Of a stretch of DNA of 64,000 nucleotides, positions 34,025 to 64,000 are shown piece by piece. The first letter of the stretch is position 1. Each line of letters starts with the position of its first letter. The notes beneath the pieces were generated by a model. That model was not told the DNA's origin, did no database searches, and saw only the letters and a list, made by a program, of their open reading frames with translations. Position numbers and translations under genes: made by a program. Origin of the DNA: Azolla caroliniana (Eukaryota > Plantae > Polypodiophyta); the NCBI GenBank assembly GCA_043228905.1, contig JBHGNT010000103.1, positions 1-64,000 of the forward strand, in the 5' to 3' direction.

Positions 34025-36349
34025 TTACACTCCAAGGGACCAATAGCCTTTCCCGGCAGTGGCGGACGGAGACCGGACATTGTCGAACCATGCCCAATAA
34101 GTAGGGTTAAACACTGCCGGCGAGGCCGGCACGGTCCGAGGAGTGAATGGTCCAGCCGACCGGCGCCACCCTTCTAAGCATTTCAGCAAAGGTATTAGGA
34201 GCTTGCCCTCGAGGAACGTGATGAAAACCTTCTCAATGTCCTCCCCTGGGCTCCTTGTCGCGGTACCCCTAAGGAGATCGGTACCTAGTTCGGTCCTCAC
34301 TAGCTTGTACAAGGGGTAGGTTCGGCACTTTTTGATCCGGTTTGGAACGGCGTAGTCGCCCGAATCATAGCGTTCCCTAGCCTTGGGGATCTCCTCATCA
34401 AGGAGCGCTTTTAGGTTTGCCTCGAAGGTCGGGATCTTCTTGAATAGCTCGGGCACCGATGTTTCGTCATTCGATGATGCTTGTGACTTTAGGGCTTGCT
34501 CGACCAACACCTCTCGGAGTTGTAGCATTAGAGAATAGGCAGGATTGGACGCATTGTCGATGTAGGAGAACACGGGCTGGTGCTCGACAACTTGCAAGAG
34601 CTCCTTCTCCGAGAATTTGGTCGGGAAGGGCGAGCCCTTGTCGGTGGCATTGAGATCATCATGGAAAGTGGATGTGATGGCCTTCTCCACAAGCTTCTTC
34701 ACCACTTCCTTCATGTTCTCTTCCAAGTGTCGGAGATCCACGGCTTGGCAGAGTGCGATCAAGTAGGTGGACGACATGAGCTTGAGGATCTCGACCGCCT
34801 CGGCTGACTTCCGGGCCGAGATGAGGCCGAGGGAGTTCACATCTTGGTTGTGTTGTTCCGCACTTTGGACGTGAGTTGTCACGGGGTTAGCAAGGTATTG
34901 GAGCTCGGAGCAATATGCGGCCATTGCGATCTCCGCACCCTTCATGCCATAGTCGAGGCTCGGGTTGGGCCCCCCTGAGAGGTTGGAGGGTAGGCCGGAG
35001 TTGTAGTAGTCGCAAACGAGCTCCGAGAATTGGGCGAACATGAGCTTACCGATGGCCGCGAGCGCGATCCGGATGTTGTCCATGGACACCCCGATGGGAG
35101 TCCCTTGGAAGTTCCCGCCGTGGAGGGCCATGTCCCGTGACACATCGATGAGAGGGTTGTCGTTCACCGAGTTGATCTCTCGCTCGATCGCGTGTGTAGC
35201 GAACCTTATCACCTCCACCTGGGGGCCGAGCCACTGGGGCGAGGTACGCAACGCGTACCGGTCTTGCTTCGGCTTCGACAAGGGGTCATTCTCATGGAGC
35301 TTTGCGGCTGCCTTCATGTAGGAGCTCCCTTCGAGCAAGAACTCCATGACCGCGGCGGCCTCGATCTGCCCCGGGTGATGCTTGAGCTGGTGCGTGAGTG
35401 GATCAGTGAACTCGGGCTTCCCTTGCATGACCTCGCAGAAGAGGGCCGACAAGACCTCGGCCAGGAGGACCAGGACATTGGAGTCGAAGCAAACGTGGGA
35501 TGCGACCGCGGCCCCAACCGAGGTCCCATTGACTAGGGCCAATCCTTCCTTGGGTTGGATCTCGAAGGGCTCCTCGATCCCCGCCAGCTTTAGGGCCTCG
35601 ATCGCCTTGAGCTCGCGGCCATCGGGCACCACAGCCACCGAATTCGGCCTCGCGGTGATGAGCCCGGCAATGTAAGAGAGCGGCACAAGGTCCCCGGATG
35701 CTGTGATCGTACCGCGGAGCGGGATCTTCGGTATCACATTGGCGCAGATCAGCTTCCTCATTGCATCCAGGATCGCCCACCGGATGCCCGAGTAGCCTTG
35801 CATCAATGTGTTCGTCCGGACGAGCATGGCCGCACGCGCGTACTTGATGGGCAAAGTGCAGCCGTCCGACGGGCGGGCGATGACCCCTGCGTTGAGGAAG
35901 CGTATCAGCTCCTTTTGTAGATCAGTGGCTTGTGTTGTCCGGCGGTGTGAAGTGGCCCCGAACCCCGTCGTGACCCCGTAAGTGTCGGTCCCCTTTAGAA
36001 TGTTGTTGAGGACCCAGTTGGAGCTCTCGTCCACACGAGCCTTGGCTTCGGCTTCATCGAGCTCGACCACCACGGATGCGCGTTGCGTGATGGCCGTGAC
36101 TTGGCCGACCGTGAGGCTACTCCCCCGTAGGACCACTGACTCGGTCTCCAGGAACTGGCGAACCATGCCTCGCACCTCATCGAAGTGGCTCGACTGGAGT
36201 GCCTCCGCGGCCTTCACCCAATGGGGGGGCTTCGCCACAGGGCCATCGATGAAGAGCGCATTCACACCGGCCACAGGCAACGGCAATGTGGGCGGGCGAC
36301 GGAGCTCAGACAGCTTGGACTCCGCGGTAGAGTTGTTAGTGGTGGCCAT
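34025..36349 (-). CDS. PAL: Phenylalanine ammonia-lyase, intronless, 774 aa
   Basis: [20 protein letters not shown] (Phe-specific F), MIO signature [56 protein letters not shown] at 36349 in ACAACCATGG context; the longer ORF start reads through a CT/CA microsatellite. Confidence 0.97.
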
Positions 36350-36409
36350 GGTTGTCCAAAACAAACAAATTGAGGCTAGATGATGGAAGAAATGGTTCAA
36401 TGATGTATA

Positions 36410-36443
<34 letters not shown>

Positions 36444-37620
36444 AAGGAGAGATTCACAAGACAAGGTGAGCACTTCACAAGTGTTCCCCATTGTTTTTCT
36501 TTTTAAGGAGGTTCTTTGCTTGGACTAGTCTCATGGAGGACCCGGTCCAAGGCACAAATGGTATTCACAAGATCTTATGTGTTCGTTCTTTCACACACTT
36601 CTAATACAAACAAAACGTTATACCCCCAAGGCCCACACCCCCTTTACACTTTCTAATCCAAAGCAAGACTAGTCCTAGTCTTCCATTTGAACACATTGGT
36701 GCTACCACTTGCTCTTTCCCTTTGTACCCATCATCAATTTGTGTTTTTGTTGCTTGAATGCTACGGTTGATGTGATTCTCCACATGCCTCTCATCATCCA
36801 ATTATTTGCACCATTGCAATTCCCGTTCGATGTTGCCTCGTTGTTAGAAACCTCCACCTTCAAAATGCCCCTCTCACTTGGTCTCAAACCTAAACCCATT
36901 CTCTGTCGTGGCAATGAATAGAACCTTGTGAGAGCACAAGGAATGGTCATCCTACAATTGTTGACATGAAAATACATCCCAATGGAGAATTGTGTGTTGA
37001 GTATGCAAAAATCATCGTGAACATCCCATAAGGCAACATGAGGAAAGGTCTTCCTTCACTTCCAAATTGTGTTTATTAAGCGTACATTTCTCCGGGAATG
37101 ATTAATAGGTGGTTATGCTATATCATTAACGTGGGGATAGGAAAATGTAAACTTGGTCTCGTGACTTGTCAACTTACAAAATTCTTTTGCACATGGAATG
37201 TTGTTATGCGATTTCAAATTTCACATGTCACCATCCTTTCTTAGAAACTCCGTCTCTCTCTCTCTCTTGATTATTTGTCAATGTCCTAGTTAAAGTATGT
37301 TTCTTGACACTCAAAGACTGTAGCAACAAAGAGAGGTGTCACCACCCTTGAAATATAAGTGAACCATGGATGTTATCTTTAAGATTGAATCTATAAATCT
37401 TTGATGTAGGATGTCCAAACAAATAAAACTTACAAAGATCTAGAAGTAAGTTATCCAAAGATCTTACTCATTTTATAGATCAAATGACATTCCATGAACC
37501 ATCTCTTGATATAATTTAGAGTCAAATTAGTGTGATGGGACTCATGCATATAAAAGCATTTACATCTAGTGATAAATCAATTAATTGTGACTTCCACATG
37601 TTACCAAATACATAGAATAC

Positions 37621-39552: not shown

Positions 39553-40235
39553 TTGTGTTCTTTAGCTAACACTCTCCCTCTCACATACACCCACCGATTG
39601 TATACAACTCGCACTTCTTGCATCATCCTCATGGTCTAAAACTCGCAATGCATGTAATCCATGTAATGTATGATAGTTGTTTGGTGCACGTGTGCTACAT
39701 GTGATGCATGATATCCTGTACTGGTTTTCGAGGGTATTGTCCAGTACCAACACCAAGTCTCCTTCTTGGATCTTTCATGAATGTAGTCTTTTCAGTTTGT
39801 CAAATCTTGCTTTGTTCTTGACCCAAGCTTCCTTAAGCTTCTTAGTGCTCAACCTTTTCTACATGTTCTATTTGACATTGTAGTTGTTGGATTCAAATAG
39901 CCAGCAAGTCTTCTCTACTCATTTCTGACTTCCATGAGAGCACCGCACATGTAGAGATTTTCTCTTCAATTGGCCAATTGTATGTGGTCTTGTCAGCCCA
40001 CAACCCATATTGGAAGACCTTCGGTACTCTACCTTTGCATGCCTTTGCAAGTGCCTTGACTATTGGGCCATGTCCTCTTTCTATCTTCCCATTCATCTTA
40101 GGATTATATGAAATTGTCAATGATAGCCGAATTCCAATCTTTCGGCTTCGTCAGAATTGGGCTCGCCACTATCGGCCATTATCTTTCCTATACACCCACA
40201 CCTATACACTATATCCTCAAGTATAAATGACATAT

Positions 40236-42819
40236 TGTTGACGTGGCCTTTGATCTTAGTGTTGTCAGGAACAGTACTAAGACAGAGAAGGAATTAGTAC
40301 TAAACGAAGGATTAGTACTATGAGAGGTGTAGAACTTCTTTGAGAGAAGGAAGAAGTGAGCGAGACGGAGAGAAAGAGAGAGATCGAGAGAGGGAGAGAG
40401 TGATGATAAGAAAGATATGTATTATGTGAAGAGAATATACAATGGTGGCTAAAAGGCTTAAGACTGGCATTGAACCAATTTGGTTCAACATAATGCCTAG
40501 TGCCCTCTTTTATAGTGTTTTCAGGAGTAATCCTAAAGCTTCTAGAATGTTCCAGAGAAATCTGGAATATACATTAATTTCCTATAGTAAAATGTAAATG
40601 AAAATAATATCCTACGTATTACAATAGATGATCTAATGGTCAAGAGCTCGACCCATATACCTAAGGTCATGGGTTCGAGTCTTGCCATATCATGACACTA
40701 TCTTCCCTTTAAAACAACGAGTGTCACGAGTCGTCTTGGATTGAGGACCCGGTTTGTGTGGATATTAACGATGGAAGTCTTCAAGAAGAGCACGAGCATT
40801 CGTCACATTCTCAATCGGTTCCCAAGTACGTTCGTTGGGACTATAGCCTAGCCAATCGACTAGATAGCAGAGCTTGTTGCGAACAATCTTGGAATCAAGG
40901 ATGGCGGCAACCTCGTACTCCGGCCCATCTTCAAGCTCGATCGGGGGTGGAGGTTGTATAAGACGTCCTGGGATGGTGCTCTCGTGATAGGGTTCAAGGA
41001 GAGAACTATGAAACACCGGATGTATCCGAAGTTGAGGAGGTAGATCGAGACGAAAAGCGACATCATTAATCTTTTTGATAATACGGAAAGGACCTAATCA
41101 CCGATAATCCAACTTCTCACATGGGCAAGTAGTCTTGATGTGTCGTCCTAGCAGCCACACCCGATCTCCAATATTAAAACTGGATGGAAGTCGATGACGA
41201 TCCGCGTAGACCTTGTGTGTTTGTTGAGCTTGTTGGAGATGAGTAGATAAATCCGCTTGTATCTTGCGTAACCGCTCCAAACGATCCTCCGCGCATGGAT
41301 TTGTGGACACCTCTAGGTTTTCAAGTACACTCCACCAGGGGTGACATCCCGTATAAGCATAAAATGGCGTAACTTTAGTGGATGCGTGGATAGAGTTGTT
41401 ATAGGCAAATTCGGCGAACTGGAGAATATTTGCCCAGTCATCCTGATGATAGTTGAGAAAGCACCGCAGATACTGCTCCAACGTTTGATTTGTTCGTTCA
41501 GCTTGGCCATCGGTTTGTGGGTGGTAGCCGGAGGAGAGGTTACAAGTGACCTTGAGCATGTTAAAAAGGTGCTTCCAGAATTTTGACACGAACTGGGGTC
41601 CACGGTCACTGATGATACTATCGGGAAGTCCATGATGCCGACATACTTCACACATGGCAATTTCGGCAGTGTCTTCACTGGAGATCTCCTTAGTACATGG
41701 CAAGAAATGAGCCATCTTCGTATATCGATCGACCACCATTAGAATCGCATTGAACCCCTTAGAGACTGGAAGATCTGTGATGAAGTCTAGAGCAATGGAT
41801 AGCCTTGGCATATGGATGATGCCTTGGCATTTTCGCTTTGCAGCATGTATCACAAGTCCGAACAAAATCCTCGACAAATTGTCGCATACAAGGTCACCAG
41901 AATGATCGTTGTACTAAATCTAATGTTTTAGTACTACCAAAATGCCCAGTTGTATATGTGTCATGACAGTTTTGTACTACTCGAAGGTGGCAAGAACCAT
42001 TAGGAACATACAAAAGTTCTTTAAAGAAGAGTTGTATTTTCATTTCTGACTTCCATGAGAGCACCGCACATGTAGAGATTTTCTCTTCAATTGGCCAATT
42101 GTATGTGGTCTTGTCAGCCCACAACCCATATTGGAAGACCTTCGGTACTCTACCTTTGCATGCCTTTGCAAGTGCCTTGACTATTGGACCATGTCCTCTT
42201 TCTATCTTCCCATTCATCTTAGGATTATATGAAATTGTCAATGATAGCCGAATTCCAATCTTTCGGCTTCGTCAGAATTGGGCTCGTCTCTATCGGCCAT
42301 TATCTTTCCTACACACCCACACCTATACACTATATCCTCAAGTATAAATGACATATTGTTGACGTGGCCTTTGATCTTAGTGTTGTCAGGAATAGTACTA
42401 AGACAGAGAAGGAATTAGTACTAAACAAAGGATTAGTACTATGAGAGGTGTAGAACTTCTTTGAGAGAAGGAAGAAGTGAGCGAGACGGAGAGAAAGAGA
42501 GAGATCGAGAGAGGGAGAGAGTGATGATAAGAAAGATATGTATTATGTGAAGAGAATATACAATGGTGGCTAAAAGGCTTAAGACTGGCGTGGAACCAAT
42601 TTGGTTCAACATAATGCCTAGTGCCCTCTTTTATAGTGTTTTCAGGAGTAATCCTAAAGCTTCTAGAATGTTCCAGAGAAATCTGGAATATACATTAATT
42701 TCCTATAGTAAAATGTAAATGAAAATAATATCCTACGTATTACAATAGATGATCTAATGGTCAAGAGCTTTACCCATATAACCTAAGGTCATGGGTTCGA
42801 GTCTTGCCATATCATGACA
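40236..42819 (-). mobile_element. Chromovirus (Gypsy with chromodomain), internally deleted; LTRs 40236-40697 and 42357-42819
   Basis: TG...CA LTRs of ~462 bp, nearly identical; PPT AAAGGGAAGATAG beside 40697; integrase (IALDFITDLP, SDRGPQF, HPQTDGQAER) and chromodomain (EYEVAAILDS...YLVDWLGY...TWEP). Confidence 0.9.
40622..40690 (+). other. tRNA-like A-box/B-box cassette in the chromovirus LTR (second copy ~42743-42812)
   Basis: TGATCTAATGG (A-box-like, 40629) and GGTTCGAGTC (B box, 40672), spaced 43 nt as in tRNA genes, with AAGGTCATGGGTTCGA variable/T-arm context. Confidence 0.6.
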
Positions 42820-45685: not shown

Positions 45686-48042
45686 CTACTTTAGCTTTCT
45701 GATTTCAGTTTGATTGCTCCTTGCAATCAACATGTCATCGAAGTATAGGAACAGATAGATCCGGGACTCGTCCGCCAGTTGCCGAGTATATAAACATGGG
45801 TCGGAGTCGGACCGGTTGTAGCCGAGTTGTCGGATGTAGGAATCGAACTTCTGGTACCACAACCTCGACGCTTGTTTTAAGCCGTATAGGCTTTTCTTCA
45901 ATCGATATACGAGGTGACTTTCCTCCCCCGTCGCCGAGAAGCCTGTTGGTTGAGACATGTAAATGTCTTCATTCAGATCTCCATGTAGGAATGTCGTTTT
46001 TACGTCTAGTTGCTTGAGAGAGGTCATCTTGACTACTGGCAATAATATTTCGTTGTAGTCAATCCCATGTTCTTGCTTGAATCCCTTCGCGACGAGCCGA
46101 GCTTTGTATTTGGGCTTTTCCGAGTCAGATCCATATTTGTGTCTAAATACTCACTTGCAAAGCAACGACTTTCTTCCAACTGGTAGTTCGACTAGCTCCC
46201 ATGTATTGTTTTGATGGATCGAGTCCATCTTGGATCTCATGGCTTGTATCCATGTATTGGCGTCTGGTGCGGCTATAGCTTCTTCATATGTGATTGGTTC
46301 ACCTGCATCAGTGTAGTTGACGTAGTCAAGGCCCAATTGATGGAACTCTGTTGGACTTCAGGCTCGTCCACATCTCCTGAGTGCCGATTTATTCGGTTCA
46401 ATTCCTTCATGTTGGTTTGACAGTCTTCAGGAGTCCTGTTGGATGACTCGTCCTTGTGATAGGATCTTGATGATGTCGAGTCGTCCTCCCCTGTTTTGGG
46501 ATTGATTGACTTGGAGGTAGGGGATTTAGATGACTTGGATTTGTTTTTCCCTTTGGTGTTTCAGTCGGGTCAACTCTGTCTCTTTTGACTCTGTCATTTC
46601 TGGCTCGCACCTTGTTTACTTTTCCTTTGTCGACTCTTGTCTATTCGACTTTGTCTTCGAGTTTGACTAGTGGACCTACTACCGATTCGGAGTCGACAAG
46701 TGTATTGTTGGCTTGGTCGAGTTCAACTGTTTGTCAAATCTCTAATTCGGTTTGGTGGGTCGGTCTTTCTACGATATCTCTATGGATTTCGAAGGAGACC
46801 TTTTTACCAACTATTTTCTACTAGTTCCTCTTCGAGAGAATGGAGTCTTCATTGAAGACTATGTCACTACTCCGGATCAATTTCTGGATCTTTGGGTCCC
46901 ATAGCTTGTTGCCGAATTCCCCATCGGTTCCATAACCGAGAAATATGCATTTCGTTGCATGGGGTGCCAACTTGGTCCTTTTCTCCCTCGGGATGAATGT
47001 GTAGGCTTCGCATCCGAATATATGGAGCCTATCATAGGTTGGCTGTTTGGCTGACCATAGTGCTTGTGGCACTTCGAGCCTGATTTCTTTTGACGACGAT
47101 AGATTGATCAAATATACTTTCGCCTGCAATGCTTCGGCACAAAATTCCAACTTTAGTCTGTCTTGTTGGAGCATTGCCATCACCCTCTCCTGGATCGTTC
47201 GGTTGATCCATTCTACATGGGTGTGTATGGAACGGTCTTTTGATGTTTGATTCCTTTGTCGAACAGGTATTGTTTGAAGGCTCGGGAGGTGTATTCACCT
47301 CCGTTGTCGGATCAGAGTGTCTTCACTTTGTGTCCTGACTGGTTCTCCACTTCAGCTATGCACCGAATAAAGAATTCGAGCGCTTCATCTTTGGACCTAA
47401 TTGAGTAGGCCCAGACCTTCCGTGTACAGTCATCTACAAATGTGACGAAGTACCAGGAGTCACCTAGTGATCGCTCAGGCATAAGCCCACATATATCTGT
47501 GTGAACGAGCTCTAGGGGTTGTCGCACCATCTCATAGTGGAGAGAGTGCGAACTTCATGTATGTTTCCCATATCGACAATGCTTGCAGAAGTCCGTCTTT
47601 GCTTGGAGTTTCGGAATGTAGTCAACCGCCATCAGCCGATTGAGTCCGTCTTGAGACATATGGCCGAGTCAGCCATGCCATAGGTTCGGGTCGGTCTTTT
47701 CGGCCACGTTCACGGCCCCTTCTAGATTGATCACCATCATTGGATACAAGGTGTTGTACTTGCATGTGCTTCCTATTTTCAGATTTCCACGATTGATCAT
47801 CCATGTTGACTCATTGAGAGTCGTTCAATACCCTTCTTCGGCTAACATGCCGATGGAGACCAGACTCCTTTTTAGTGCCAATACATGTCAAACTTGGTGC
47901 AGGATTATCGTGTTGCCATTCAACAATTGGATTGGTACATCGCCAACTCCAACAATTTTGCATTCCTACTCATTGCCTAGTCGAACTGTGCCGCTGGCTC
48001 CGACCGAATAGTTCAAAAACCATTCAATATTAGGGGTCACGT
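45686..48042 (-). mobile_element. Decayed Copia (GAG-pre-IN, IN, partial RT); its protease/gag part continues at 55444-55785
   Basis: PLELVHTDICG, KCIFLGY, NNTWELVELP, QLDVKTTFLHG, KSLYGLKQA. DSGATFHVTP is restored when the nested Gypsy is removed. Confidence 0.88.
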
Positions 48043-48367
48043 TGTCGGGGTAGTTGTGGTTCGTGCGGCAAAGTCGCGGGGACTAAGGTTAAGGGGAGTT
48101 GAAGGAACTTAACTTTTAATAAGGCTTGTATGGTGATGATAGAATGGTTAAGGATAGTAAGAAGAAGAGTTACGAGTAATGTGTGTGTGTGTGAGAGAGA
48201 GAGACAAGCATAGATAAAAGATAGAGACAATGTATGATTCAAGAAAGAAGATTGAGACAAAGTATGATTCAAGGAACAAGAGTATATGATATAAACATGA
48301 TGTATATTAAAAATATAATATTTTACCAACTTTACAATCCTTGACCGCAAACTGAACACATTCTCTA

Positions 48368-48438
48368 TCGACCCTTGATTTGAACCCACGACCTCAACTT
48401 CGAAACGAGAGGTTCTCCACCCAATGAGCTAGTCTTCT
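48368..48438 (-). other. tRNA-like cassette in the LTR, sense to the element (copy at 54866-54936)
   Basis: Minus strand TAGCTCATTGG...TTTCGAA...GAGGTCGTGGGTTCAAATC; A-B spacing 45 nt. Confidence 0.65.
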
Positions 48439-48679
48439 TTAATTGATTGTATTATTTTCTCACTCTCTCTTGATTCCCCCCCTTGTTTACCCTTTCCCCT
48501 CTTTATATAAGTGTTGCCATGCATATGGTAATGTATGGGAGCATGGCATGCATGCAATGCATGAGTTACATGTAATGCATGATCGCCATTTGGCACACAT
48601 GCATTGCATGTGATGAATGATGGCTATGTATGAAAATAAATATGGGATAAGTATAATGATGAAAATGCATTCTAAAATA

Positions 48680-48882
48680 ACTAACCTAGCTTAGTGGTGT
48701 ATGCTTGGTGCTTGGTATACAAGGTTGAGGGTTCAAGTCCCTCAATTTTACTTAATACAATATATAGCTTCATTCTTATATCATGAAGCACATTTATTAC
48801 ACACTTTTACAAATAAATAGCCTAGCCTAGTGGTATGTACATTGTATATTGTATATAAGGATGTGCGTTCAAGTCTCTCAAA
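48680..48882 (+). other. Two tandem tRNA-like cassettes at the LTR 5' edge, antisense to the element (copies at 55178-55380)
   Basis: TAGCTTAGTGG (48687) with GGTTCAAGTCC (48730) in the hairpin TTGAGGG-TTCAAGT-CCCTCAA, then TTTT; TAGCCTAGTGG (48823; TGGCCTAGTGG in the other LTR) with CGTTCAAGTC (48866). Both lie in a ~136-bp tandem duplication. Confidence 0.7.
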
Positions 48883-48979
48883 TATTATTAAATACAACAT
48901 TTAAGCTCATTTTTATATCGTGAAGCACATTCTTCACGACACCCACCCCCTCTGAACTTGCACATTGGTTGTGTAGAGT

Positions 48980-51900
48980 TCATCCAACACTTCTTCCGAT
49001 TTTTAGTTCTTCTACTTCTTCATAAAATTCAGGCTCTAATGACTCCCTCCTTTTAAATATTTTAATCCTTTTTCCTGCAATTGGGATACGAATTTCTGTC
49101 CCATCTAATTCATTGAGGAAATATGTGGCTTTATCTGTTATTTTCCTAACTTCATAAGGTCCAAACCATCTTTTTGCAAACTTCCGAATAGTACTGTATT
49201 GATTATCTAGGCTATTATCATATACTAATACCCAATCTCCCTCTTGCACCTTTCTTGGTCGTATTCTTTTCATCTTGTCAAATCTGTCCTTATTCTTGAT
49301 TCTTGCCTCTTTCAATCTAGTAGCTGCTTTTTCTATGTCTTCTATCCTTGATTGAAGTTGTCGTATTCGAACCGCAAGTAAATCTTCCCTACTCATTTCC
49401 GATTCCCAAGGCAACACAGCCCATGTAGTTATCTTTTCTTCAATTGGCATTATTGGCTTCTGTCCTGTGATTAATTCTGCAGGCATATATCCAGTAACAG
49501 TGCTGTGAGTTGTCCTATCAGCCCATAGTGCATAGGGTAAGGTTTTTGGCCAATCACTAACCCGTCCTCTACATGCCTTTGCCAAAGCTTTGACTATTGG
49601 CCCATGTCCCCTTTCTACCTTTCCATTAGCTTCTGGATTGTACGCCGTTGTCAAAGAAAGCCGAATTCCTATTTTGTCGAAAAAATCTTGAGCTTCCGCA
49701 GAATTGAGTTCTCCCCTATCTGCCACTATCTTCCCGACACATCCATATCTACAAACAATGTCCTCCAAGATGAATTGACATACTCCTAATGTCCTTTTTG
49801 TTCTCAATGAACGACCTTCCACTTGATTTGTTAGATCTTCTCTAGCAAGAACCAAGTATCTCTTTTGTCCTACTCCAAGTGGCATTGTTACCAAATCTAT
49901 CATCCACTTGTAATGCACCCCCGGTGAGTATGTTGGGTGTAATTCATCACAAAATTTTACATTTGAATAATATTGACAAGTGGGACAAGTTTCCACATAC
50001 TTTTTTATTTGCTCATAGTATCGAGGCCACCAAAATCGTTCTTTAATCTTACTGAAAGTGGCCCACACTCCTCGATGACCAGCCCATTCTTTGTCATGCA
50101 GCTCTTTGATTATCTCCTTTCTTTGCCCTTCAGAACCTATTACTCTTTGCGGGTTTCCAGTCTTGGTTTTCGGATGTCGCCATAGATATCCTTCATGCAG
50201 GAAGAACTTATGGGCTTTCTTGCGAAACTGTGAGAACTCTTTTCCAGATCGACCTTTGTACTTGTCAGGGGTTTGTAGGTATTTCCCTATTTCCTTGAAT
50301 TCTTCTTCATACTCCTCTTCTAGAAACTGCATTCCTCCTTCCCGAGTAATGCTTGTGGTAAGGACTGTTTGTTCTTTGTCCTCATCGTCCGAGTCTGGAA
50401 TCTCCTCTTCCTCATACCTTGCTCTTGATAACATATCTGCTACTGCATTTCTATTCCCAGAGATATGTCGAACTTCAGGGTTGATTGATCTAATATAGAT
50501 ACACCATCTTAACATGGCTTGATCTGGAATATCACAATTAGCTATGATACCCAGAATAGGCAAACAATCTGTTTCTATTATTACTTCAGCACCAATTAAG
50601 TAATCTCTGTCTGTCTTTACAGCTGTTACTATCCCCCATAGCTCTCTTTTCACCTGTGCATATTTTCTTTGTCGACCACTAAGAACCTTTGCCCCGAATC
50701 GGACTGGATACCTTTCTTCCCTATCTTGTTGGCTTATCACCCATCCAATTCCAATGGGACTAGAGTCTACTGTGAGATATATGGGCCGGGTGTAGTCTGG
50801 TTGCTTTAATGGTGGAGCTTGTGCCAAGTAGTACTTCAATTTCTTCATTGCCTCGGAATGCTCTTCACTCCATTCAAATGTCTCTCCTTTTCTTTGGAGT
50901 CTATATAAAGGTTCAGATAAATGGGCATAATGCGGAATCCATTTACAGTAAAAAACACATACCCCCAAAAACCTTCGTACTTCTGAGATGGATGTACATT
51001 CCTCTTGCATATTTTGAATTGCATTGACCTTGGTTGGGGATGGCTTTCTCCCATATGGGCCACACATATGACCAACTATTAATATCTCTTTTGCCCCAAA
51101 TATTGACTTCGCCCCTGATAAGGTCAAATGCACTTCTTCCATCCTTGATAGCACCTTCTCACAATCCTTGATATGATCAGCAACGAATTGACGGCAACCA
51201 CTTTCGTCCAATTCCTCGTTCTTCTCTTCCTCCTTGCATCCCTTAATTGGAACATCATCTAGAAAAGGCATTGTAATATGAGGAACAAAATCACGAAGTA
51301 CCTTGTTCATTCCATTCATCATATGCGCCACTGAGTTGGTCGCTCCTTGCGGCAAGGTGCACATCCGTACTAACCCTATAGGTGTCTTGATAGAAGTTAT
51401 ATCTCGACTTTTGATAGCAAGTTGAAATTGATCATACCCGGAATAAAGGTCTCCCATTGAATATATAGCTCTTCCTGCAAACATCTCAGCAAACTCATCC
51501 ACAATTGGCCCTACTCCCGAGTTTCGGATTGTTACCTTATTCACGGGTTGCATATCTTGGATAAATCGGAGTCGCCCATCTTTCTTTAACACAGTGAACC
51601 ATCGACTCGAGTAAGGAGCGTTCGATGGTTCCAAGATACCCATCCTTATCTTTTCTTTCAAAAGTTCTAATAGTTGAGGGATTCTAGCCCTAGGCATGGG
51701 TATTGGCTTAAAGTTCCATGGAATATGAGGGATAGTGAATATAACCATGGGCTCCACAATTTCTGGATCCACACACCCTATTTCCTCCGGTTGGAATGCG
51801 AACGCCTTTCCATGCCTTTTTAACATCTCCCTGAACTGCTTTTCTTCAGCGGGTAATAGGAAGTCACCCCCTCCTATTTTCATCCCTTGTATTGTTTCCG

Positions 51901-52396
51901 GAGTAAACACATGTCCTACCTTTCGTGGGTCTCTGATCATTGGCTCTGTGGCTGCTTCTTTGATTGCCTTTTCACTATCCCCTGGAAGTGGAGCAGCAAT
52001 AGGACGAACCTTCTTCTCCACTGTCTTGTACTTTGTTAGTACATGAGCTTCATGATCCTTTCGAGCAACTTCTTCAATGACCTCATACATCTTGATTGAA
52101 TGGACAGGAACTTGGATTTCGTTGTCTTCTTCCATTGCTTCCAAATGAGTTATTGTATCTTCAAAACTTAATTCTTCAAACATATCCTGAATTTCTTCAT
52201 CATCATCTATTAATCCAGAACACTTAAAGTACTCGAAAGCATTTTGTATTTTATTATTATTTACTTTTAGTATAAAAGTAGCACCATTAGATGAGATTGT
52301 ACAAGGAATATCTTTATTTACATTATTATTTATGGGGTTTTCTTTTATGCTCGGGCTATCACAGCCCCTACCTGTAAAAGCCCTATCTAAAAATCC
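48980..52396 (-). CDS. Gypsy pol (RT-RNase H-integrase), reached by a predicted -1 frameshift
   Basis: ORF 48980-52183 (YSSRWFTV, DLYSGYDQF, FLDD, VDSS, VKREL, HHCC, ADRG, GPY). The frame stays open upstream to the gag stop (GFLDRAFTGRGCDSPS...IQDMF). Confidence 0.92.
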   Translation of the reverse strand, partial: GFLDRAFTGRGCDSPSIKENPINNNVNKDIPCTISSNGATFILKVNNNKIQNAFEYFKCSGLIDDDEEIQDMFEELSFEDTITHLEAMEEDNEIQVPVHSIKMYEVIEEVARKDHEAHVLTKYKTVEKKVRPIAAPLPGDSEKAIKEAATEPMIRDPRKVGHVFTPETIQGMKIGGGDFLLPAEEKQFREMLKRHGKAFAFQPEEIGCVDPEIVEPMVIFTIPHIPWNFKPIPMPRARIPQLLELLKEKIRMGILEPSNAPYSSRWFTVLKKDGRLRFIQDMQPVNKVTIRNSGVGPIVDEFAEMFAGRAIYSMGDLYSGYDQFQLAIKSRDITSIKTPIGLVRMCTLPQGATNSVAHMMNGMNKVLRDFVPHITMPFLDDVPIKGCKEEEKNEELDESGCRQFVADHIKDCEKVLSRMEEVHLTLSGAKSIFGAKEILIVGHMCGPYGRKPSPTKVNAIQNMQEECTSISEVRRFLGVCVFYCKWIPHYAHLSEPLYRLQRKGETFEWSEEHSEAMKKLKYYLAQAPPLKQPDYTRPIYLTVDSSPIGIGWVISQQDREERYPVRFGAKVLSGRQRKYAQVKRELWGIVTAVKTDRDYLIGAEVIIETDCLPILGIIANCDIPDQAMLRWCIYIRSINPEVRHISGNRNAVADMLSRARYEEEEIPDSDDEDKEQTVLTTSITREGGMQFLEEEYEEEFKEIGKYLQTPDKYKGRSGKEFSQFRKKAHKFFLHEGYLWRHPKTKTGNPQRVIGSEGQRKEIIKELHDKEWAGHRGVWATFSKIKERFWWPRYYEQIKKYVETCPTCQYYSNVKFCDELHPTYSPGVHYKWMIDLVTMPLGVGQKRYLVLAREDLTNQVEGRSLRTKRTLGVCQFILEDIVCRYGCVGKIVADRGELNSAEAQDFFDKIGIRLSLTTAYNPEANGKVERGHGPIVKALAKACRGRVSDWPKTLPYALWADRTTHSTVTGYMPAELITGQKPIMPIEEKITTWAVLPWESEMSREDLLAVRIRQLQSRIEDIEKAATRLKEARIKNKDRFDKMKRIRPRKVQEGDWVLVYDNSLDNQYSTIRKFAKRWFGPYEVRKITDKATYFLNELDGTEIRIPIAGKRIKIFKRRESLEPEFYEEVEELKIGRSVG
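52333..52396 (-). promoter_or_regulatory. Predicted -1 frameshift signal (GGAUUUU plus pseudoknot)
   Basis: CAG GAU UUU UAG; 6-nt spacer; stem GGGCUUUUACA/UGUGAUAGCCC; loop GGGG can pair with downstream CCCC. Confidence 0.7.
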
Positions 52397-54501
52397 TGGG
52401 AAAACTCTTCATCCATCTCTTGAATTGGATGTTCCCTCAAGCATTCTTTGTTTCTTTCATGGTTGGGCCTCACGGTTAAGAATTGGACAGTCTTTCTTCC
52501 ATCTTGACTCTTGATTCTCGCGAAAGCCGAACCATCATCAATAACCTTTGTTTCCATCCTCACTGCGGTGATGTAGGGCTGGCCAAGGATGACGGGGTAG
52601 GTTGATCGATCCTGCACAAAGAAATTTTGATTCACCGAGACATCACCAATTGTTACCTTCACACTAGGACATGCTCCGAATAGATCCTCCGTAGTTTCTG
52701 TGGCAGCTCTTATTTTCCACCCATGATTCTTGTCAATCGGCCATCGTCCTCGAGCGTAAAATTCCGATGACATCATGTTAATCTCTGATCCATGATCGAT
52801 CAAAGCAATACATGGAATTTGCTGCTCCCCAATTTTTGCAGGTGCCTCCGTTGTTGCTCGAGCCCAATGGTCCCTTGTATAGTGACTCCTATCCCCTTCA
52901 TGGACACCAACATCATTCTGGTTTTTTACACTTGCAGCATTGATGGTGCCACCATACAAATCTTGGAGTGTTGCTGCACACCCTCCCGTAATTTCCTCCG
53001 TCACCTGTCTCTTCCTTCTAATAATATCTATGATAACTTCATGAAATTCTTTCTTTGCTATACCCAACACTTCTCTTAAAGTAAATTCTACCTTACTATT
53101 TAATATTCTTGTTTCTAGTACCTTTTTTATATCCGTCGTTTTTTCTATGTCTGAGGCAAGCTTGAAAGATGGGCCTGTCTTTCCTTTTACTTTATCAGCT
53201 TCCTTCGGCTCAATAGCACCCTTTTCCATCTCCCTTCTCTTTTGTTCTCGTGTCTCATGTCTCTTTGTCGGATCAGCTTCCTCAGCTCTCTTCCGCTTCT
53301 CTTCCACTAGCACATCTTGTGCATTCACTTGGGCGAATGTTGATAGCGCGTCTACTGGATCATTCCATCCAGTGAAGTTTCGTATTTCATCTCCCGCTCT
53401 TTTTAATTCATCCACTCGAACCTTCCCTTTTCTTGCATAATCCATCACATCTTGCCAAAAGCCAGATCCACCATATGAGTCTTCTACGCGCAATCCTAAG
53501 GTTGCCACGGATTGTATCGCTTGAGTCGTTTCTCTCTCGGCATCTTCCATTAGCCTTTTCATTCCTCCTCGCCCGAAGTTGAGTTGAAGTGGTTGTCGAG
53601 TCTCAGTTGAGTGAATCTTGCCATCTTGATAATAGATTTTATTATGATTAAGAGCATCCCTATGCTCTTGACAATCTTTCTTCTGGTGGTCGATACTATC
53701 ACACCACATACACCTTCGGACCATTCCACCTCCCTGCCTTGATGAAGTCGAGCTTTGTCCCGATTCTAGCTTCGTCACTTTGATCGACAAGTCTTTCATG
53801 CCTTTCACTAATTCGTGTAAGAGTGATTCTTCTACTTTCTTTTCTCCCGACTCGTTCCCCGTTTCTTCATCATTTCTGTCGGGCAACTCCATAAACCATA
53901 ACTTTCTTTTGCAGAAATGGGCGCACGCCCTTTTCACCTCCTCCCAATCTTCGGTAAGTCCACTTGGACTATTCTGATCTTCTAAAAGCATTCCCAAGTC
54001 CTTCCTGTCCTTAATATTAGTAGCTTGTAGAAACAATATTACTTTATCTGGCACTATTATATTTCTATCTCTAACATTTAGTTGCTCAAATATTTCAGAA
54101 AACTCTTTTAATACTTCCAAAACACTTAAATGTTTATTAGACTCTACCCAATCCATGAAAGCTCGCCTTGTCATCCTTGACATATCGTTGAGGTTGTATT
54201 CATTGAGTAATGCTCTTTCGAACGTTGTCCATGTCTGATTCTCCCTTTGTAGCTCCTGGATCCTTTCTTGTAGCCCAATCGCAACGACTCGACTAAAGCT
54301 ATTAATTTTTGCAGCTTCGTCGACACCGCGTTTAAGCATTTCTTCATTATAAATCTTCAGAAATCTTGTTAAATTTATACCTTCGAAGATTCCTACTCGT
54401 GCGGGAATATTGTCGACGGCTTTGTCGATGCTTGCCATCATCCCTTGTTCCCGCATCACTCGTTCCATCATCGTACACATAAGCCTCATTTGCTCCTCCA
54501 T
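52387..54501 (-). CDS. Gypsy gag-protease, 704 aa
   Basis: CMWCDSIDHQKKDC knuckle; ALIDHGSEIN...VILGQPY aspartic protease. Confidence 0.9.
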   Translation of the reverse strand: MEEQMRLMCTMMERVMREQGMMASIDKAVDNIPARVGIFEGINLTRFLKIYNEEMLKRGVDEAAKINSFSRVVAIGLQERIQELQRENQTWTTFERALLNEYNLNDMSRMTRRAFMDWVESNKHLSVLEVLKEFSEIFEQLNVRDRNIIVPDKVILFLQATNIKDRKDLGMLLEDQNSPSGLTEDWEEVKRACAHFCKRKLWFMELPDRNDEETGNESGEKKVEESLLHELVKGMKDLSIKVTKLESGQSSTSSRQGGGMVRRCMWCDSIDHQKKDCQEHRDALNHNKIYYQDGKIHSTETRQPLQLNFGRGGMKRLMEDAERETTQAIQSVATLGLRVEDSYGGSGFWQDVMDYARKGKVRVDELKRAGDEIRNFTGWNDPVDALSTFAQVNAQDVLVEEKRKRAEEADPTKRHETREQKRREMEKGAIEPKEADKVKGKTGPSFKLASDIEKTTDIKKVLETRILNSKVEFTLREVLGIAKKEFHEVIIDIIRRKRQVTEEITGGCAATLQDLYGGTINAASVKNQNDVGVHEGDRSHYTRDHWARATTEAPAKIGEQQIPCIALIDHGSEINMMSSEFYARGRWPIDKNHGWKIRAATETTEDLFGACPSVKVTIGDVSVNQNFFVQDRSTYPVILGQPYITAVRMETKVIDDGSAFARIKSQDGRKTVQFLTVRPNHERNKECLREHPIQEMDEEFSQDF

Positions 54502-54519
54502 TTCTCCTCGTCGTCGCCT

Positions 54520-54536
54520 TCACGTCGGGTTCACCA
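54520..54536 (-). promoter_or_regulatory. Primer binding site for tRNA-Trp
   Basis: TGGTGAACCCGACGTGA, 4 nt after the 5' LTR, complementary to the plant tRNA-Trp 3' end UCACGUCGGGUUCACCA. Confidence 0.85.
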
Positions 54537-55443
54537 AATGTGTCGGGGTAGTTGTGGTTCGTGCGGCGAAGTCGCGGGGACTAAGGTTAAGGGGAGTTGA
54601 AGGAACTTAACTTTTAATAAGGCTTGTATGGTGATGATAGAATGGTTAAGGATAGTAAGAAGAAGAGTTACGAGTAATGTGTGTGTGTGTGTGAGAGAGA
54701 GACAAGCATAGATAAAAGATAGAGACAATGTATGATTCAAGAAAGAAGATTGAGACAAAGTATGATTCAAGGAACAAGAGTATATGATATAAACATGATG
54801 TATATTAAAAATATAATATTTTACCAACTTTACAATCCTTGACCGCAAACTGAACACATTCTCTATCGACCCTTGATTTGAACCCACGACCTCAACTTCG
54901 AAACGAGAGGTTCTCCACCCAATGAGCTAGTCTTCTTTAATTGATTGTATTATTTTCTCACTCTCTCTTGATTCCCCCCCTTGTTTACCCTTTCCCCTCT
55001 TTATATAAGTGTTGCCATGCATATGGTAATGTATGGGAGCATGGCATGCATGCAATGCATGAGTTACATGTAATGCATGATCGCCATTTGGCGCACATGC
55101 ATTGCATGTGATGAATGATGGCTATGTATGAAAATAGATATGGGATAAGTATAATGATGAAAATGCATTCTAAAATAACTAACCTAGCTTAGTGGTGTAT
55201 GCTTGGTGCTTGGTATACAAGGTTGAGGGTTCAAGTCCCTCAATTTTACTTAATACAATATATAGCTTCATTCTTATATCATGAAGCACATTTATTACAC
55301 ACTTTTACAAATAAATAGCCTGGCCTAGTGGTATGTACATTGTATATTGTATATAAGGATGTGCGTTCAAGTCTCTCAAATATTATTAAATACAACATTT
55401 AAGCTCATTTTTATATCGTGAAGCACATTCTTCACGACAACGT

Positions 55444-55785
55444 GGAATGTGGCGCCAGAATCCAGTAACCACATGTGTGTATCTTGTGCACTATAGAGGA
55501 CTTCTCTGATCACCGAGTCCTCTAAGGAGAGGATTTCTCCCGTTCAGGTGTTGACAATGTTGACTTAGTTGCATACTAGACAGTTATTCGAGTCGGATCG
55601 TCCTCGATTCCGCTCAGATTGTCGACCACTCTCTTTCCTCTTGATCGACCAACAATCGGAAATGTTGTGACCGGCTTTGTTACAGTGTGTGTAGAAGTCC
55701 CCTTGTCGCCTTTTTCTCGACTTCGACCGTTGTCGGTCTCCCCTCGTTCTTGACCGATTGGTATTCCGACCGGTTCTATCCAGAG
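55444..55785 (-). pseudogene. Copia gag zinc knuckle and protease fragment (host of the nested Gypsy)
   Basis: YTHCNKAGHNISDC and WLLDSGATFH. Confidence 0.8.
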
Positions 55786-62729: not shown

Positions 62730-64000
62730 GTGATCAAATCACTTGATAATAGAAAATGTCATACATGAGTGTTTGATTGAAAGCCAACATTGCAATGTAT
62801 TGCAAAATGAATCTCTTCATTATTATTACATTTTATGATTGATCTTAAGGTCTTATTGTCATCAAACTACGTACATGAAGACTACGCACGGACACAAAAT
62901 GAGATATCTTTCATTATGCCCCATGGGTGGGGTTTATATAGTACAAAAGGGAACCGTTACAAATAAAGAATAAGACAACTAGGGAGTTACATTACTTACC
63001 CACTTTCCCACCTTTGTACACATGCACACAAATGTGCATGTGTTCATACACATACACATACTCATCCTCACACACTCATTCATATTATATATACACATCA
63101 ACCACATCATTACACATACCCTTATGCATCCCCATATATTCTTACGGGTAACACATGGCACGCCTGTGGGACAGTGCATTGCACGGTGTACCCACTCACC
63201 ATGGCAACTCTTCTCGACCGGAACTCCATCGGTCGTCTGAACGGTCAAAAATCCCTCGACCGGATCACTGGTCTACGATCAATAACTTTGATCGGAGCAT
63301 TGCTTGACTCGAACCTTCTCGTTCGGTCAACACAAGTCGCGATTGGATCATACACCAATCGGCTAGTTCAATGTGGCATGGCTCGTGAAATCGTGTTGTG
63401 CGTTTGTGTATTCTTTCTTTCATCATGTGAGTTGTGTTTTCGAACATGATTTGTACAACTTATCTTTTGAAATTCTAGTTTTTACCCTCATGTTTTTAAA
63501 TTTTTATTTTCTGCCCTCCATTTTCTAAACTTTTCTCATCTGCACTCAAGCTTCTGAAATTCAATGGTATGCCCTCGAATTATTGAAATTTTCCTCTCCA
63601 CCCATTTCTCTTTCTCTCTTGCTTTCTTATTTTCTTGTTCTTTCTTTGTTCTCCTCTCTGTCTGTCGATTTCGTTTTCTTCTTTATCTTCTTCATCGTCT
63701 TCTCTTCTTGTTGCTTCTTCATTTTTCTCCTTCTTCTCCTTCTTTGTTGTTGTCCTCCTCTGATTTCTTCCTTTCTATCTGTTGCTTCTGTCTTTCTCTT
63801 CTTCCATTGGTCATCTATGGCCATTTCCATCTATGGTCATCCTTCTGTCTCGGCCAGCTGTGGTTGTCAAACGCTCTCTACTCTACAGTCGTCGCCATCG
63901 GCTCGGCCGCCACTGTTTGGCGGTTGTTCGAATAGTAGGCTCTCGATTCGGTCGTGTCTTTCCGGACACCTGTCAGATTTCGGCCATCTCTCGACGGTCG

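Follow-up and report, generated by a model that had tools for sequence, protein, structure and literature searches.

The question raised by this locus is why the long terminal repeat (LTR) of a retrotransposon should hold tRNA-like A and B boxes beside a predicted Pol II promoter, and whether such boxes are kept for a use or are functionless remnants.

Structure and lineage of the retrotransposon

Within the window (the whole 64,000-nt stretch of DNA that was analysed), the interval 48043–48941 forms the 3′ LTR of a minus-strand retrotransposon that spans 48043–55439 (7,397 bp). Judged by its sequence, this is an intact, young and autonomous non-chromovirus Ty3/gypsy element of Phygy type, with the following features.

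48043–48941, minus strand: 3′ LTR, 899 bp, TGTCG...CGACA
54541–55439, minus strand: 5′ LTR, 899 bp, differing from the 3′ LTR by 5 mismatches in 899 columns
48039–48042, second copy 55440–55443, minus strand: 4-bp target duplication ACGT, fitting NCGN
54520–54536, minus strand: 17-nt primer-binding site after the 5′ LTR, the same site across related families, which we take to be of tRNA-Trp type, in agreement with the REXdb Phygy majority
48942–48953, minus strand: polypurine tract before the 3′ LTR
52387–54519, minus strand: ORF1, gag (DUF4100), free of stops; a D-H-G-S-E motif of protease-like type was read by eye close to its end
48980–52408, minus strand: ORF2, RT–RNase H–integrase, sharing 22 nt with ORF1 in the −1 frame

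The domain order RT–RNase H–integrase, an interior filled by the coding region and the ACGT flanking both ends all correspond to Phygy, and no chromodomain match was found in ORF2. The passages on Phygy in the REXdb paper give a 4-bp NCGN target duplication for 100 % of elements and a tRNA-Trp primer for 81 % (PMC6317226). The element shares with that description the duplication, the compact coding region, the lack of a chromodomain and, probably, the primer-site type, whilst its length falls slightly below the 7,656–9,968 bp listed there; the main text of the same source has zero occurrences of ‘tRNA-like’. The element is treated here as Phygy-type on these sequence hallmarks rather than on the REXdb reference tree. 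The closest named proteins were from Riccia, with identity of up to 65 %. The 22-nt overlap of ORF1 and ORF2 (52387–52408, −1 frame) adjoins a T-run and is a likely frameshift site. The element itself sits inside what appears by eye to be a Copia-type protease region (47500–48042 and 55440–55700), and elsewhere in the window a long open frame for a PAL-like aromatic amino acid lyase (34025–36502) was present among retrotransposons.

A/B-box cassettes in the LTRs

Three A/B-box pairs at tRNA spacing were found in each of the two 899-bp LTRs, confirming the original prediction. Across 1000 dinucleotide shuffles of the LTR no such pair arose, with either 0 or 1 A-box mismatch allowed. The cassettes and the neighbouring Pol II motifs are arranged as follows, with twins referring to the 5′ LTR.

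48680–48752, plus strand: cassette 1, in U3 and antisense to the element; A box 48687–48697, B box 48730–48739, 7-bp hairpin, TTTT at 48746–48749; twin A box 55185
48816–48888, plus strand: cassette 2, in U3 and antisense; A box 48823–48833, B box 48866–48875, T5 near 48910; twin A box 55321
48365–48438, minus strand: cassette 3, sense and downstream of the TATA box; A box 48431–48420, B box 48386–48377; twin A box 54929
48501–48510, minus strand: predicted Pol II TATA box TTATATAAAG, a motif call, starting at 48510; twin starting at 55008
48510–48621, minus strand: block rich in CATGCA (RY-like), 8 matches, between cassette 1 and the TATA box; also in the LTRs of families 5 and 10 (below)

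On the plus strand, the boxes of cassette 1 read TAGCTTAGTGG (A, 48687) and GGTTCAAGTCC (B, 48731), and those of cassette 2 TRGCCTAGTGG (A, 48823) and CGTTCAAGTCT (B, 48867); on the minus strand, cassette 3 has TAGCTCATTGG (A, 48431) and GGTTCAAATCA (B, 48385). The distance from T8 to G53 is 44, 44 and 46 nt in cassettes 1, 2 and 3, respectively, so the spacing of 43 nt first reported, which ran to G52, becomes 44 nt. The hairpin and TTTT described behind the first cassette were both present in the sequence, and the TATA-like motif of the Pol II promoter noted near 48505 starts at 48510; the nearer antisense A box is 177 bp away from this motif and the sense A box 79 bp. No T-run was found within 45 nt behind cassette 3. 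The two antisense cassettes are not separate captures; cassette 2 is a tandem duplicate of the unit containing cassette 1, comprising the first ~136 bp of the LTR (101 of 138 columns identical).

The acceptor and anticodon stems are decayed, as had been noted, with 2/7 and 3/5, 4/7 and 3/5, and 4/7 and 2/5 paired positions in the three cassettes. ARAGORN identified no tRNA, the Rfam tRNA model reached only 17.4 bits (E 1.8), short of its cut-off of 29, and eight cassette-bearing loci returned no Rfam tRNA at E values up to 5. We therefore rejected the cassettes as tRNA genes: a cloverleaf with paired stems is absent, and cassettes 2 and 3 do not form a cloverleaf fold. What they do retain is intact A and B boxes at a workable spacing, the sequence requirement of a tDNA/TFIIIC barrier. 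One further A/B-like pair in the window (63314–63365), situated upstream of a TATA-like motif, was dismissed as chance on account of its 51-nt spacing and a matrix score below 10 bits.

Recurrence across related families

Words of the element were detected in sequencing runs of six organism labels, two of which contained only a small share, and contigs from four runs covered 30 of 30 LTR bins. The element family, a young one, reaches high copy number in four organism labels. Integrase alignment supplied the relatives, namely the top 80 among 197 metagenome loci plus three genome-contig loci; the integrase end was present in 72 of these 83 loci and in the window element, yielding 30 families at 85 % identity, 28 of them with LTR sequence. 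A generic A/B pattern produced 30 matches in 77 LTR segments (69,643 bases, window LTR included); the counts were 0–3 for 20 shuffles and 1 for 245,004 coding bases. A leave-family-out matrix, in which families 7, 13 and 20 were not left out jointly despite common U3 blocks, produced 40 LTR matches of at least 15 bits and none in either shuffles or coding DNA. The generic match in L068 at 347 was excluded from matrix training, the matrix matches in L041 at 332 and L043 at 155 were dropped as partial B-box duplicates, and the L071 match (family 18) was dropped from the family count as it belonged to a nested, inverted LTR of family-1/10 type. In L041 (3326–3440) and L043 (4267–4339), partial duplications add a second B box directly behind the cassette.

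At 18 bits, 11 of the 28 families were positive, 16 negative (two of these with less than 500 nt of LTR examined) and one borderline; family 2 contained a decayed cassette only. The cassettes are, on sequence grounds, a real feature across the lineage and a variant of LTR Pol III promoters, and the idea of a SINE insertion private to one copy fails. The original prediction held that the cassettes bracket the Pol II promoter. This full arrangement, antisense upstream and sense downstream of the TATA box, does recur, in families 1, 9, 10 and 14 (three independent groups), but not in the other seven positive families, of which 5, 7, 13, 20 and 21 have an antisense cassette only and 3 and 23 a sense cassette in U3. 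Overall, 20 of 30 cassettes are antisense, and families 1 and 9 contain a duplicated cassette. Measured from the predicted TATA box, the proximal upstream A box lies at 147–190 bp in families 1, 9, 10, 13, 14, 20 and 21, at 187 bp in family 23, and at 215 and 242 bp in families 3 and 7. Cassette-positive families are scattered over a quick, midpoint-drawn tree of 71 rows, which cannot tell loss from exchange. No cassette was found in L024, L027, L057, L062 or L081, the only LTR loci outside the main sample series, which together make up most of one clade. Three loci (L081–L083) are Phygy-type integrase contigs in cyanobacterial and Streptomyces assemblies, likely plant contamination.

Dense CATGCA/TGCATG (RY-like) repeats upstream of the TATA box were seen not only in the window (48510–48621) but also in LTRs of families 4, 5, 9, 10 and 22. 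The window block is likely a Pol II enhancer. RY elements bind B3 factors such as ABI3, and the repeats could by this route link expression of the element to drying or spores.

A cassette in a chromovirus and probable exchange of U3 regions

The matrix also detected a cassette in both LTRs of a chromodomain-bearing element at 40262–42819 that is unrelated to the Phygy element, and in none of the other repeats of the window.

42383–42819, minus strand: chromovirus 5′ LTR with one antisense cassette, A box at 42750 on the plus strand, 31 bits
40262–40697, minus strand: chromovirus 3′ LTR with an antisense cassette, A box at 40629 on the plus strand, 35 bits

The upstream A box is 114 bp from the predicted TATA box, and no T-run was found behind the cassette inside the LTR. 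Viral contigs contained no relatives of the Phygy pol or of the chromovirus integrase, and the chromovirus case for this reason stands as one element. This chromovirus is truncated, with 437-bp LTRs that differ at 7 positions, and lies inside a decayed Phygy pol (39919–42819), ~340 bp of which is repeated behind both LTRs (39919–40261 and 42040–42382), a structure that perhaps arose by template switching or recombination.

Families 5 and 10 both comprise LTR variants with and without a cassette that have little in common beyond the LTR ends. One family-5 variant contains a family-1-type LTR start at +128, and in L009 (7015–7330) and L020 (3420–3840) the family-5 LTR has at this position a purine-tract-like stretch together with the family-1 LTR start. 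The mosaic, which is likely the capture of another family's U3 judging from these junctions, was seen in two assemblies (L009 and L020), although the loci are collapsed metagenome contigs and possibly chimeric. Blocks of 200–280 nt of U3 are common to families 1, 5 and 10 and to families 7, 13 and 20, leaving about eight distinct cassette lineages, chromovirus included. Because 16 of 28 families lack a cassette and families 5 and 10 have both variants, the cassette module is accessory, and it appears to move between families by U3 exchange.

The same patchiness would also suit another history, in which a few U3 regions received SINE heads or tRNA fragments that then spread passively by U3 exchange as functionless neutral relics. 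The common U3 blocks cut the number of origins that this would need, and Kojima remarks that tRNA-like pieces occur in quite a number of Repbase LTRs, a SINE insertion being the origin proposed for Helenus in the relevant passages (PMC10886601). Against such a history, no cassette was found free of LTRs in the 64-kb window, where 8 of 8 matches were inside LTRs, and a single unassigned match occurred in 428 kb of mostly coding loci; by eye, neither a SINE tail nor a separate target duplication was seen. At position 12069 of L044, a cassette of 26.7 bits lies far from the Phygy LTR.

Conservation of boxes, spacers and fold

Several tRNA-typical positions are preserved outside the search pattern, supporting the proposed tRNA origin: pyrimidine 33 was kept in 26 of 26 cassettes, and A-G-G-T at positions 44–47 in 23, 23, 26 and 22 of 26. 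Positions 56–57 were CA in 17, CG in 9 and TG in 1 among 30 cassettes, and box spacing was 44–46 nt in all 30. Taken on their sequence, the LTR cassettes are tRNA-derived, with boxes and spacing kept and the tRNA fold lost.

The p-values of the conservation tests that follow are overstated, the samples being related, and the tests overlap in sequences and are not independent; all except the four-run contig test are also biased, because cassettes were found by their boxes. Within families, 14 alignment-defined pairs from four families differed at 37 of 297 box positions versus 106 of 389 spacer positions (p 2e-6), with A boxes contributing 24/157, B boxes 13/140 and flanks 236/1058. Restricting the comparison to one pair per family and strand left 15/128 box and 41/168 spacer differences (p 0.007). 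Indel openings were about threefold rarer inside cassettes (6 in 585 nt) than outside (36 in 1264 nt, p 0.017). In the unbiased test, contigs of four runs from two studies contained 28 sites in 261 nt that vary at no less than 20 %. The 64 spacer positions accounted for 13 of these sites, degenerate or edge box positions for three and the 22 invariant box positions for none; the result is weak, with p 0.033 for invariant box versus spacer and p 0.14 against all other positions. Neutral evolution of the boxes, raised beforehand as the counter-case, did not hold, since boxes differed within families at about half the spacer rate. This rate, the depletion of indels and the uniform spacing make neutral relics an unlikely account of the cassettes.

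Stem covariation beyond permuted columns was not detected in the D (p 0.96), anticodon (p 0.68) or T stem (p 0.84), and the acceptor stem displayed a slight pairing signal (p 0.09, or 0.04 with Watson–Crick pairs only). A conserved RNA fold was rejected on this basis, the slight acceptor signal aside, in line with the claim that selection acts on the boxes and not on the tRNA fold. Of the 20 antisense cassettes, 14 were followed by a T4 run within 45 nt, with 6.7 expected, as were 3 of 4 U3-sense and 1 of 6 post-TATA cassettes. The CAA upstream motif was not enriched (7/30 against a background of 17 %). AT content upstream was 0.76 versus 0.62, an excess partly mirrored downstream (0.70).

The boxes, spacing and T-runs are constrained and the fold is not, and protein binding on DNA is therefore indicated. 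On this sequence evidence, the cassettes are quite probably selected Pol III-type elements of some kind. They might instead be actively transcribed by Pol III and regulate the element through the short RNA produced or through antisense transcription itself, as a decoy or small-RNA trigger. The complete promoter and T-run of the U3 cassettes would suit such a role, as would the perfect T-arm hairpin of cassette 1, yet the stems pair no better than permutation beyond the acceptor signal, the spacer changes fast and two of the three window cassettes have lost the cloverleaf. These same features weaken the earlier suggestion of a source of tRNA-like small RNAs, and regulation by RNA appears a little less credible than neutral descent.

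A possible role at the Pol II promoter

Cassettes in the common layout are oriented so that their upstream side looks towards the Pol II enhancer and TATA box. Passages of PMC13578239 describe TFIIIC binding to A and B boxes, placement of TFIIIB on the AT-rich upstream region and termination at T-runs, and according to the relevant parts of PMC2040200, the barrier that tDNAs pose to heterochromatin in fission yeast requires TFIIIC and Pol III and works whichever way the tDNA points. The cassettes resemble these yeast tDNA/TFIIIC barriers, as set out in those parts of both sources, in having A and B boxes beside a Pol II region in either orientation. By this analogy and the sequence evidence, the leading reading, to which we give somewhat less than an even chance, is that the cassettes serve as TFIIIC/Pol III docking sites on DNA that hold chromatin open around the Pol II promoter. 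TFIIIC would bind the A and B boxes and place TFIIIB on the AT-rich side facing the Pol II enhancer; U3 cassettes would give short outward transcripts ending at the T-runs, and the bound complex might act like yeast tDNAs in restricting how far silent chromatin spreads.

The effect of a bound complex could also be the reverse, with Pol III factors dampening the neighbouring Pol II promoter rather than protecting it. A parallel exists in tRNA-gene-mediated silencing in yeast. Such self-restraint shares its sequence evidence with the open-chromatin reading, and TFIIIC on cassette 3, which is part of the transcribed leader, could slow Pol II. The youth and high copy number of the family in four organism labels speak against it, and the fact that families 1 and 9 have duplicated the cassette is more easily seen as a gain for the element, though this is an argument only; we consider dampening improbable, slightly more so than regulation by RNA.

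A broader form of the open-chromatin reading, that of a portable insulator module, is offered tentatively and as a good deal less likely than docking itself. Autonomous elements of at least two Ty3/gypsy lineages would have repeatedly captured tRNA promoters and deployed them as TFIIIC/Pol III sites that point outwards, roughly a nucleosome's length upstream of the TATA box and, in some families, downstream of it as well, with exchange occurring together with U3. If true, plants would have a first chromatin barrier of tDNA type, and the elements would be spreading a cis-acting anti-silencing device in many copies. The near-identical pol genes accompanied by LTR variants with and without a cassette offer a natural test of tDNA-type barriers in plants. 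If the cassettes are active, many TFIIIC sites would be scattered through host genomes and tRNA-pseudogene counts would be inflated.

Comparison with known LTR promoters of Pol III type

Cassettes of this kind in autonomous plant elements were not described in the literature searched, which did not extend to Repbase or most subscription journals, and the Helenus supplements may list further plant cases. In the relevant parts of 10.1101/827881 and PMC3286476, tRNA-like sequences appear in unrelated contexts only. The precedent initially put forward was Cassandra, which is apt in that a Pol III promoter lies in the LTR, but Helenus is closer, having tRNA-derived boxes in TRIM LTRs in the account of Kojima (PMC10886601).

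The passages on Cassandra describe an internal Pol III promoter with conserved boxes in a plant LTR (10.1101/2023.07.14.548913; PMC10886601). That promoter is 5S-derived, replaces the Pol II promoter of a non-autonomous element and serves to make that element's own RNA. Kojima (2024) described tRNA-derived boxes in the LTRs of the non-autonomous Helenus (TRIMp3), following only TRIMs in the relevant sections, and expected autonomous Helenus partners to use Pol II and to have no long LTR stretches in common with Helenus (PMC10886601). The likeness, within those sections, lies in tRNA-derived LTR sequence that is conserved around the A and B boxes and non-functional as tRNA; Helenus elements measure 311–1263 bp, include one plant case there, from Selaginella, and are proposed to use the Pol III promoter for their own RNA (PMC10886601). 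The present element also has A and B boxes in its LTRs but, unlike Helenus, which stays below ~1.3 kb, is 7.4 kb long and autonomous, with two open frames, a retained TATA box and up to three cassettes, mostly antisense.

A use of the Helenus or Cassandra type, with a sense cassette driving transcription of the element itself or of short derivatives that are non-autonomous, would agree with the Helenus-like pattern of box conservation (TRGCY, YGG, GGTTC) and with the scarcity of near T-runs behind post-TATA cassettes. It is nonetheless the least probable of the alternatives, and very unlikely, because 26 sense-strand runs of T4 or longer break up the path from cassette 3 to the element end, the first after 125 nt. 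The antisense majority and the retained TATA box likewise argue, at the level of sequence, against a Pol III promoter for the element's own RNA, and no TRIM derivative was seen. In sum, Pol III promoters in LTRs have been described in short non-autonomous elements in which they replace the Pol II promoter; here, autonomous elements that keep their Pol II promoter intact carry conserved and mostly antisense cassettes next to it, which points to another use.
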